Shown: positions 1,987 to 2,588 of the stretch, piece after piece
How positions within the stretch are numbered: position 1 is the first letter of the stretch
Layout of the letters: each line of letters starts with the position of its first letter
Origin: a virus
Length of the DNA: 21,941 nucleotides
Reading direction: 5' to 3' (one strand)
UHGV virus genome: UHGV-0105323
Program-made: the position numbers and the translations under genes
The notes under the pieces: model-generated
The model's input: the letters and a program-made list of their open reading frames with translations, nothing else
Told to the model about the DNA's origin: nothing
Database searches by the model: none

Positions 1987-2418
1987 ATGTTTGGTATTTT
2001 TGGTAAAAAAGCCCGCCGAGCGGCAGTGGAAATTAAAAAGTTTGAGAAACGTGATCTGGCACAGGCGGTTATTAATGCTGCCTATCTGGTGGCCTATGCA
2101 GATGGTGAATGTGAGGCTTCAGAGAAAGCGAAGATCGAGCAGGTCTTGCGTAACCAGCCTGCGTTGTCCGCGTTTACGTCAGAAATTAATGCGATTAGCG
2201 CAACCATTATCGGTCAGCTGGATACGAACTTTAAAATTGGTCGTCGAGCGGCGTTACGTGAGATCGAGGATGTGAAACACGATACGCGTGAAGCGGAAGA
2301 CGTGCTGGATGTGGCGGTGGCCATTGCCGAAGCAGACGGCGAAATAGAGCCGGAAGAGCGCAAGGTGCTGGAAGAGATTGCCGGTGTTCTGGGCCTTCGT
2401 CTGGAGAATCATCTGTGA
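1987..2418 (+). CDS. TerB-like (tellurite-resistance TerB family) protein
   Basis: Start taken at the internal ATG (MFGIFGKK) behind AAGGAA; the ORF-track start at 1915 is probably upstream read-through. Helical protein with two acidic segments (YADGECEASEKAKIE and EADGEIEPEERKVLEEIA) resembling the TerB fold. Occupies the tRNA-to-nanS-p slot where Stx phages carry stxAB. Confidence 0.55.
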   Translation: MFGIFGKKARRAAVEIKKFEKRDLAQAVINAAYLVAYADGECEASEKAKIEQVLRNQPALSAFTSEINAISATIIGQLDTNFKIGRRAALREIEDVKHDTREAEDVLDVAVAIAEADGEIEPEERKVLEEIAGVLGLRLENHL

Positions 2419-2426
2419 CGGTAAAA

Positions 2427-2588
2427 ATGCGTCTGGCTGTGGTTGCGCTCCTGCTGTTTCTGGTGGTGATGGTGGTGATGGTGGACTTCAGCAGCCGGAT
2501 AATGTCAGTGCTGGCTGACGGTGTGCTGGTGGCGGGTGTGGTGGTTGTTGCTTTCCCGTTGCTGAAAAAGAAAGCATCAGGCGATTAG
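2427..2588 (+). CDS. Small hydrophobic membrane protein (53 aa)
   Basis: ATG 8 nt after the TerB-like stop; product MRLAVVALLLFLVVMVVMVDFSSRIMSVLADGVLVAGVVVVAFPLLKKKASGD has two predicted TM helices and a basic C-terminus. Below the ORF-track size cutoff, found by reading. Confidence 0.35.
   Translation: MRLAVVALLLFLVVMVVMVDFSSRIMSVLADGVLVAGVVVVAFPLLKKKASGD

Follow-up and report, generated by a model that had tools for sequence, protein, structure and literature searches.

The viral genome UHGV-0105323, an E. coli prophage, was analyzed over a stretch of 21,941 nucleotides (nt), referred to here as the window, with attention to two plus-strand genes, tciA and tciB, that lie between positions 1,987 and 2,588, and to a structured RNA that precedes them. 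The gene order around the pair, determined with ARAGORN and Pfam, is methyltransferase, three tRNA genes, tciAB, and an esterase with DUF1737, SASA and DUF6645 domains. The Shiga toxin (Stx) 2a phage WGPS2 carries methyltransferase, ileZ, argN, argO, stx2A, stx2B and a SASA esterase in that order. When the window was compared with WGPS2 by blastn, homology extended from 64 to 1865 and picked up again at 2625, so that between the shared flanks lie 759 nt in the window (1866-2624) and 1328 nt with stx2AB in WGPS2 (L006 3032-4359). Window 1866-2624 is a clean cassette exchange for stx2AB between homologous flanks. The flanks of the stx locus in Stx-converting phages (methyltransferase, ileZ-argN-argO tRNAs, and nanS-p downstream) are all present here; stxA and stxB are not, and window 1866-2624 stands in their place. 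An earlier note, made from this DNA alone, had described both the gene order of Stx-converting prophages and the placement of the pair in the stx slot, and the alignment with WGPS2 confirms both.

The tciAB cassette shares with the stxAB cassette its slot in the Q-dependent late operon, where the tRNA cluster and its terminator lie on one side and the STnc100/nanS-p flank on the other. The two differ in their unrelated cargo and in that the one stx cassette examined has no leader RNA of the tciA family. The flanks are found in 464 phage records, hundreds of them Stx-converting. The full tciAB pair was present in only 4 of 29 matching phage records, none of the four being Stx-converting, and no phage record in the collection combines tciAB with stx.

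The tciA and tciB genes

TciA, a protein of 143 amino acids (aa), matched the Pfam TerB family PF05099 with an E value of 3.9e-16 (59.8 bits, cutoff 24.4), residues 26-138 aligning to profile positions 2-109 of 118. A profile built from five TciA sequences matched the solved TerB structure 2JXU over nearly its full length (residues 16-137, E=5.4e-13), and weak profile matches to DUF533 and DjlA were also seen. The TerB assignment made in the earlier note was therefore upheld. Two acidic motifs of the form ADGE-x-E-xx-E are present, in which D39, G40, E41, E43 and E46, and D117, G118, E119, E121 and E124, are invariant. Judged by these matches, TciA is a single-domain TerB-fold protein with both acidic ADGE motifs. 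It is acidic overall (isoelectric point 4.98), with a basic N-terminal segment that holds eight lysine or arginine residues in the first 25. An N-terminal extension from an in-frame GTG at 1915 was considered and rejected, since the homologues carry indels there that are not multiples of three and the region shows RNA-like covariation; P1 and RefSeq TciA both begin at MFG. PADLOC 2.0 matched no defence model, with only a marginal hit of TciA to PDC-S48 (E=0.003) and none for TciB.

TciB matched the Pfam family DUF3927 (PF13064) with an E value of 9e-20 (70.8 bits, cutoff 25). Its hydropathy plot has two maxima, at residues ~7-23 and 36-50, with a short polar loop between them and basic ends, a pattern that fits an N-in/C-in hairpin in the inner membrane. 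The earlier note had described a 53-aa open reading frame (ORF) with two transmembrane (TM) segments starting 8 nt after the tciA stop. An ATG does lie there, at 2427, and the small membrane ORF is real. Its start is better placed at GTG 2415, which overlaps the tciA stop as GTGA, has GGAG 8 nt upstream, is the start used by RefSeq, and brings back N-terminal M-x-x-K residues that are conserved among homologues. A start overlapping the upstream stop was found in 94 of 99 distinct homologous loci, so the tciB product is most likely 57 aa from GTG 2415 and not 53 aa. Because the tciB start codon overlaps the tciA stop, the two proteins are made together. This coupling was seen in Escherichia, Pantoea, Pseudescherichia, Franconibacter, Serratia, Pectobacterium and jumbo phages; the pairing is a conserved unit. 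Pairwise ratios of nonsynonymous to synonymous substitution rates of 0.043 for tciA and 0.243 for tciB indicate that both are kept as proteins under purifying selection.

BLASTP showed TciA to be 53% identical to phage P1 TciA over its full length (E=1e-49) and TciB 47% identical to P1 TciB (E=7e-12), the two genes being adjacent and in the same order in P1. In PHROGs, TciA matched family 632, 'tellurite resistance' (E=3e-69), and TciB family 1470, 'TciB-like' (E=9e-21). A locus in uropathogenic E. coli, with proteins named by RefSeq, is 98.8% identical over window 1400-3200 and 100% over the pair. In the stx-negative phage JLK-2012, a prophage of O55:H7, a 98% identical pair between tRNAs and yjhS is labelled tciA/tciB, and the yecE prophage PPyecE_EH1910 has a 'TciA/TerB-like protein' labelled at the equivalent slot. 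By similarity, then, the pair is a homologue of P1 tciA/tciB that has already been named, in a slot already annotated by others; it is not a new candidate module. The P1 pair is alike in gene order, in the stop/start overlap, in its methyltransferase and tRNA neighbors and in being non-essential cargo. It differs in that P1 has tciC and lacks the structured leader, and the window copy is closer to the genes of jumbo phages. The window has no counterpart of tciC, the third small gene of the P1 type: no start codon overlaps the tciB stop, and the next plus-strand ORF (2607-2771) falls mostly inside the region that matches STnc100 (2654-2862).

The RefSeq name suggests a tellurite resistance determinant, and membership of the TerB family is in its favor. 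Resistance from ter operons requires terC, terD and terE besides terB. Neither the window nor the homologous loci inspected contain terC, terD, terE or terZ, and a lone TerB homologue is no basis for inferring tellurite resistance, which we regard as very improbable here. TciA does share the fold family, a similar length and both acidic motifs with TerB of the terZABCDE(F) operons (R478 and the O157 tellurite-resistance island; 2JXU), but it lies outside any ter operon, and in place of TerC, TerD or TerE it is paired with a membrane hairpin of 57 aa.

Table 1. Positions of the features discussed in the text; coordinates are those of the window unless a locus is named
Feature	Coordinates	Strand	Evidence or context
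Exchangeable cassette (leader, tciA and tciB)	1866-2624	+	blastn against WGPS2
tciA, 143-aa TerB-family protein	1987-2418 (ATG to TGA)	+	Pfam TerB; 2JXU; P1 TciA; PHROG 632
tciB, 57-aa DUF3927 protein, predicted two-helix inner-membrane protein	2415-2588	+	Pfam DUF3927; P1 TciB; PHROG 1470
Structured tciA leader RNA, ~115 nt	~1861-1978; covariance-model match 1855-1989	+	150 bits, models R1 and R2
Leader helix P1	1861-65/1872-76	+	Covariation
Leader pseudoknot PK1 (P1 loop to downstream strand)	1867-71/1953-57	+	Covariation
Leader pseudoknot P2	1884-91/1932-39	+	Covariation
Leader helix P4	1900-08/1960-68	+	Covariation
Leader helix P5	1912-20/1943-51	+	Covariation
DNA N6/N4 methyltransferase, left flank common to Stx phages	467-1516	+	Pfam N6_N4_Mtase, E=3e-44; PADLOC MTase_II
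Three tRNA genes	1566-1816	+	ARAGORN; Rfam tRNA matches
tRNA, CAU anticodon, ileZ type	1566-1641	+	ARAGORN: Met; RefSeq: Ile
tRNA Arg-UCG	1649-1725	+	ARAGORN
tRNA Arg-UCU	1740-1816	+	ARAGORN
Intrinsic-terminator-like hairpin and U-run, GGCTCGCTTTTGCGGGCC then TTTTTTGT	1831-1856	+	Terminator scan
STnc100-family small RNA gene, right flank	2654-2862	+	Rfam RF02076, 134.7 bits against a gathering score of 47, E=2e-30
NanS-p-type sialate O-acetylesterase (DUF1737, SASA, DUF6645), right flank	3085-5046	+	Pfam
Leader paralogues	L004:11484-11623; L113:10240-10375; L147:3696-3815; L216:3732-3849; L091:7448-7563		Lysis region, lambdoid prophages

A structured leader RNA upstream of tciA

At the nucleotide level, the window and the jumbo phages become homologous ~100 nt upstream of the tciA ATG, and the aligned upstream regions consist of invariant blocks with covarying segments between them. 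The segments pair into three helices and two pseudoknots (Table 1), and the fold is doubly pseudoknotted since P2 crosses P4 and P5 while PK1 crosses P1 and P4. Covariation was counted in an alignment of 70 distinct sequences made with a covariance model limited to P1, P4 and P5. The paired positions were complementary in 94.4% of cells, compared with 39-46% when the partners were slid, and both sides had changed in 21 of 36 pairs, a number reached in none of 500 shuffles. PK1 was paired in 97.7% and P2 in 96%, though neither was imposed by the alignment model, and smaller seed alignments gave the same picture. PK1 exists in at least seven compensating versions among the copies: CGCCC:GGGCG, CGCTC:GAGCG, TGCCCA:TGGGCA, GGCTC:GAGCC, GTGCC:GGCAC, TCTCAC:GTGAGA and TCGCAC:GTGCGA. 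Frequent G-U pairs (for example columns 81/159 and 88/146) fit a plus-strand RNA rather than DNA. An extension of P3, 1910-15/1932-37, was rejected because it competes with P2, which is better supported by compensatory changes; the putative small hairpin P3 itself (1917-21/1925-29) overlaps P5.

The Shine-Dalgarno sequence (SD), AAGGA, is at 1974-78; P4 ends 5 nt upstream of it, and the compact fold leaves the SD accessible. In the tciA-type copies the junction AGAGCCUUUC (1888-97) does not vary, and CCUUU within it (1892-96) could alternatively pair with AAAGG (1973-77) and hide the SD, which suggests that the leader may act as an ON/OFF translational switch. The leader is a conserved structured domain of the 5' untranslated region adjoining the ribosome-binding site, the arrangement looked for in riboswitches. 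The tciA leader resembles pseudoknotted translational leaders and small pseudoknot riboswitches, such as the T4 gene 32 operator, preQ1-II and SAM-II, in being a compact pseudoknot that stops a few nt short of the SD, with a highly conserved junction able to pair with the SD instead; it differs from them in having no Rfam match and in the diversity of the genes downstream. The run of G residues at 1898-1902, on the 5' side of P4, and at the homologous positions (for example in L004, L140 and L072) differs in length between E. coli copies, with 4 to 12 G, and the U after it is often missing. Slipped-strand variation may be the cause and could tune or disable the leader.

Searches of Rfam 15 found no family at E<=0.1 for the leader within 8 kb, and at E<=10 on 181 nt gave only chance matches far below threshold. 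Identity with a known ribozyme or riboswitch was therefore rejected. No RNA is annotated at the leader position in any record inspected, the leader sequence was not found in the accessible literature, and TerB is nowhere paired there with RNA motifs. The leader is an uncatalogued RNA and the new result at this locus, the gene pair being already known.

Covariance models also detected divergent copies elsewhere in the same prophages, and a pattern scan found many more. Among the genes downstream of these paralogues are those for P22-type Ant (P22_AR_N), KilA-N, Rha, and proteins of 220-317 aa of unknown function. The ant-type copy lies in the lysis region past the endolysin gene, and before an Rz-type lysis gene in the O157:H7 locus; it was found in 305 phage records, which cover most Stx1 and Stx2 phages as well as BP-4795 and Salmonella ST104. 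In one lambdoid prophage (L216:85-1192) the leader precedes a gene for a TAXI/NMT1_3 periplasmic binding protein and an overlapping 50-aa ORF with two TM segments, and in the jumbo phages a TAXI binding protein gene follows tciB, so TciB-like mini-proteins, TerB and the orphan TAXI binding protein may be linked. Each lambdoid copy directly follows a terminator and each jumbo-phage copy a tRNA. No second copy was found in the window with filters off, and the leader model had no match upstream of tciA in P1 (L003), Serratia, Pectobacterium or Pseudomonas. Leader and cargo are therefore separable modules. No coherent metabolic theme was found among the genes that follow the leader (the TerB pair, TAXI, Ant, KilA-N, Rha and unknown proteins), and such diverse cargo argues against a riboswitch for a single metabolite. 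A control element of general use to phages is favored instead, for example a translational switch, an operator to which a protein binds, or an element that affects processing or stability.

Distribution of the pair and its neighbors

At least 80% of the 602-nt pair was present in 803 of 5426 complete E. coli genomes, among them O157:H7, where an intact copy lies in a non-Stx lambdoid prophage. In another ~1900 E. coli genomes parts of the pair are present, in most cases what is left of the 3' end of a truncated tciB at the corresponding slot, which indicates repeated decay or replacement of the cassette. One such remnant encodes 43 aa (the 3' half only) and lies beside iraM (L005:4969-5100).

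Relatives of TciA were found in Pantoea, Pseudescherichia, Franconibacter, Dryocola, Serratia, Pectobacterium and Symbiopectobacterium, followed in these genera by an overlapping or closely abutting ORF of ~50-80 aa that is DUF3927-like in most. In Pantoea a gene for a Q-like antiterminator lies upstream of the pair and one for an endolysin lies downstream. The usual partner in Pseudomonas is another protein, of 67 aa with a single TM segment. The Pseudomonas prophage loci L102-L109 (~4001-4650) have TerB-like genes of 147-149 aa, and in most of them the next gene encodes an overlapping protein of 67-72 aa with one TM helix and conserved cysteines that is not DUF3927. At L102, the one locus examined for this, a gene for a CI-like repressor is found upstream in the same orientation, which places the pair in a RexAB-like position.

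In every context examined the pair was carried only by phages and prophages. In P1 it lies between dmt plus tRNAs and ban. It also occurs in Erwinia and Salmonella jumbo phages, namely Machinavirus (family Chimalliviridae) and Erskinevirus (phage Asesino), which we take to be lytic. The jumbo-phage TciA is 70-76% identical to that of the window and thus closer to it than P1 TciA is.

The pair adjoins tRNA genes in lambdoid, P1 and jumbo phages. The CAU tRNA of the window (1566-1641) is 86% identical to a P1 tRNA (L003:4434-4513) that lies 3 nt past tciC. JLK-2012 has Asn, Thr and Gly tRNAs (L002:5599-5832) upstream of an otherwise 95% identical cassette, and P1 has Asn and Thr. The tRNAs and tciAB seem to travel together with their order shuffled. 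An obligatory, functional link between them was considered and rejected, because in other species tRNA genes are missing within 4 kb of most loci, a toxin-antitoxin pair takes their place in PPyecE_EH1910, and tciAB contains no AGA or AGG codons. The toxin-antitoxin-like pair of PPyecE_EH1910 (L344:2998-3693; a 'plasmid stabilization protein' and a regulator) replaces the three tRNAs upstream of tciAB. In E. coli G1/2 (L113:1825-4659) a reverse-strand cytosine methyltransferase and an ATP-dependent nuclease are inserted between Q and a truncated adenine methyltransferase; this is another cargo or defence insert within the Q-to-S region.

As to the flanks themselves, the methyltransferase flank has 86% nt identity to that of WGPS2, and RefSeq names the tRNAs Ile, Arg and Arg in a near-identical locus. 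The flank common to Stx phages ends with the terminator at 1831-1856, and the leader is directly downstream. The right common flank opens with the STnc100-family small RNA (sRNA) gene, which is full-length, lies in the gap between tciB and the esterase and has its own terminator at 2832-2851 according to the terminator scan. A 2026 preprint describes the STnc100 sRNA as typical of the position beside the esterase gene, and lists TerB among the frequent neighbors of Pas sRNAs (10.64898/2026.05.13.724894). In homologous loci the esterase is labelled SASA family carbohydrate esterase or yjhS.

Expression and possible role of the cassette

A simple consensus scan, which is crude, predicted no sigma-70-like promoter on the plus strand between 198 and 5400, and a terminator was placed at 1831-1848 (1831-1856 with the U-run). 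In related prophages Q lies upstream of the equivalent region. Most transcripts of the cassette would then come from Q-modified polymerase that passes the terminator late in the lytic cycle, as happens for stx2. Given the terminator upstream, the lack of a predicted promoter and the copies in jumbo phages, expression in the lytic phase is preferred to expression in the lysogen, and for tciAB here a lytic-phase role is more likely than lysogenic conversion.

The reading that we put first, tentatively, is that leader, tciA and tciB form a promoterless cargo cassette in the slot between Q and lysis, and that its product is a membrane-tethered TerB module made late in infection under the gate of the leader. 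Read-through of the terminator by Q-modified polymerase would yield a late cassette transcript, on which the leader would gate or boost translation of tciA. On the cytoplasmic side of the inner membrane, TciB would tether or partner TciA, which is acidic with a basic N-terminus, and the TerB domain might there sense or buffer a membrane- or cation-linked signal. The membrane of the infected cell could in this way be kept functional until the phage's own lysis, in the face of superinfecting phage, pore-forming colicins, membrane-directed abortive defences or premature lysis. Tethering of TciA is plausible because the acidic protein has a basic N-terminus and TciB has two TM peaks with basic ends, and an exclusion or membrane-protection role for tciAB is possible.

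This arrangement has parallels. DjlA and YebE/DUF533 are established examples of TerB domains with membrane anchors or effectors, and TciA plus TciB may reproduce their membrane-anchor-plus-TerB architecture as two chains. The defence system Dionysus consists of DinB and the pore-former DinC, and TerB proteins have been described as amphitropic (preprint 10.1101/2025.09.30.679545). Together with DjlA, YebE/DUF533, Dionysus and, by analogy, RexA/RexB, tciAB has in common a TerB-type cytoplasmic domain joined with a membrane anchor or effector. It differs from these in that the anchor is a separate, translationally coupled mini-protein, and that there is neither a J domain nor a large pore-forming partner.

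Several points weigh against a leader-gated membrane module. The interaction of TciA with TciB and the function of the leader are both inferred; the single-sequence AlphaFold2 model of TciA, all-helical with a mean confidence (pLDDT) of 57, is too poor for use; the conserved acidic residues of TciB (VDF..LADG) are not retained in the jumbo-phage version; and the promoter scan has the limit already given. Many prophages have only a truncated tciB remnant, and the module is therefore dispensable. The Pseudomonas and Serratia relatives lie near CI-like or Cox-like regulators, a position typical of genes expressed in lysogens, so the timing of expression may differ between phages. In P1, tciA, tciB and tciC were non-essential in a CRISPR interference screen (PMC10695390), and the tci genes are a variable region of P1-like plasmids (PMC9603915). 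The accessible literature holds no experiment on the function of any tci gene.

The neighboring regulators in Pseudomonas and Serratia are also a point in favor of a lysogenic-conversion or defence module, as the earlier note had suggested. In this reading tciAB would be active in the lysogen and would shield the host against other phages, colicins or oxidants as a cytoplasmic sensor with a membrane effector, resembling RexA/RexB or Dionysus. Other defence-like inserts in the Q-to-S region agree with this idea, and ter operons such as that of R478 reportedly give phage-inhibition and colicin-resistance phenotypes. TerB domains also occur in the Shango, Bunzi and Dionysus defence systems (10.1101/2025.09.30.679545). 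We nevertheless consider the lysogenic module unlikely: there is no predicted promoter and a terminator abuts the cassette, the same pair with its leader is found in lytic jumbo phages, including Chimalliviridae, neither protein matched a PADLOC model, and TciB is far smaller than known pore-forming effectors.

Occurrence of the pair only in phages, both temperate and lytic, is likewise what would be expected of a counter-defence decoy, that is, a TerB mimic that competes at the membrane with host TerB sensors (ter, Dionysus-, Shango- or Bunzi-like) and blunts membrane-surveillance immunity. The 70-76% identity of TciA between lambdoid prophages and jumbo phages implies recent exchange, and the pair is carried by Chimalliviridae, of which the Phikzvirus jumbo phages are presumably members. 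Phikzvirus jumbo phages have been reported as targets of the TerB-containing Dionysus (10.1101/2025.09.30.679545). The case for a decoy is purely analogical, expression from the late operon of lambdoid phages would be late for anti-defence, and no similarity to the DinB, SngA or BnzA models was found in PADLOC; we judge it improbable.

The place of the pair in the late operon, just upstream of the holin and endolysin genes, and the likeness of TciB, in its small size and pair of TM helices, to proteins of the holin class would also suit an accessory of lysis timing, with TciB modulating holin triggering in an antiholin-like manner and TciA regulating it from the cytoplasm. In P1 and the jumbo phages, however, the pair is far from the lysis genes, and many functional lambdoid prophages lack it or have stx instead, so that we give this little credence. 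Ranked overall, protection or exclusion during lytic growth comes first, followed by lysogen defence, an anti-defence decoy and lysis timing, with tellurite resistance unlikely.

A more specific version of the proposed membrane module gives greater weight to the leader, and we hold it as a rather doubtful possibility. The double-pseudoknot leader family would gate the cassette: switched by a cellular signal or by a factor from the phage, it would free the ribosome-binding site only at the proper stage of infection, and TciA-TciB would be a pair of TerB sensor and membrane partner, like RexAB or Dionysus, that controls the membrane state of the infected cell. The leader family invoked there is common to the cargo of Stx-type lambdoid phages and nucleus-forming jumbo phages (tciAB, TAXI, ant, KilA-N and Rha).

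The tciAB pair is named and widespread, and in the cargo slot of lambdoid phages that matters most clinically it is one of the alternatives to stx met most often. Its copies in jumbo phages shift the question from a benefit to the lysogen to a role in the infected cell. More is to be gained from the leader RNA, which covaries strongly, is present in hundreds of sequenced Stx phages, upstream of ant as well, and is absent from Rfam and from the annotation of every record inspected. If it controls translation, it would provide a handle on the regulation of late-operon cargo in Stx-type phages.

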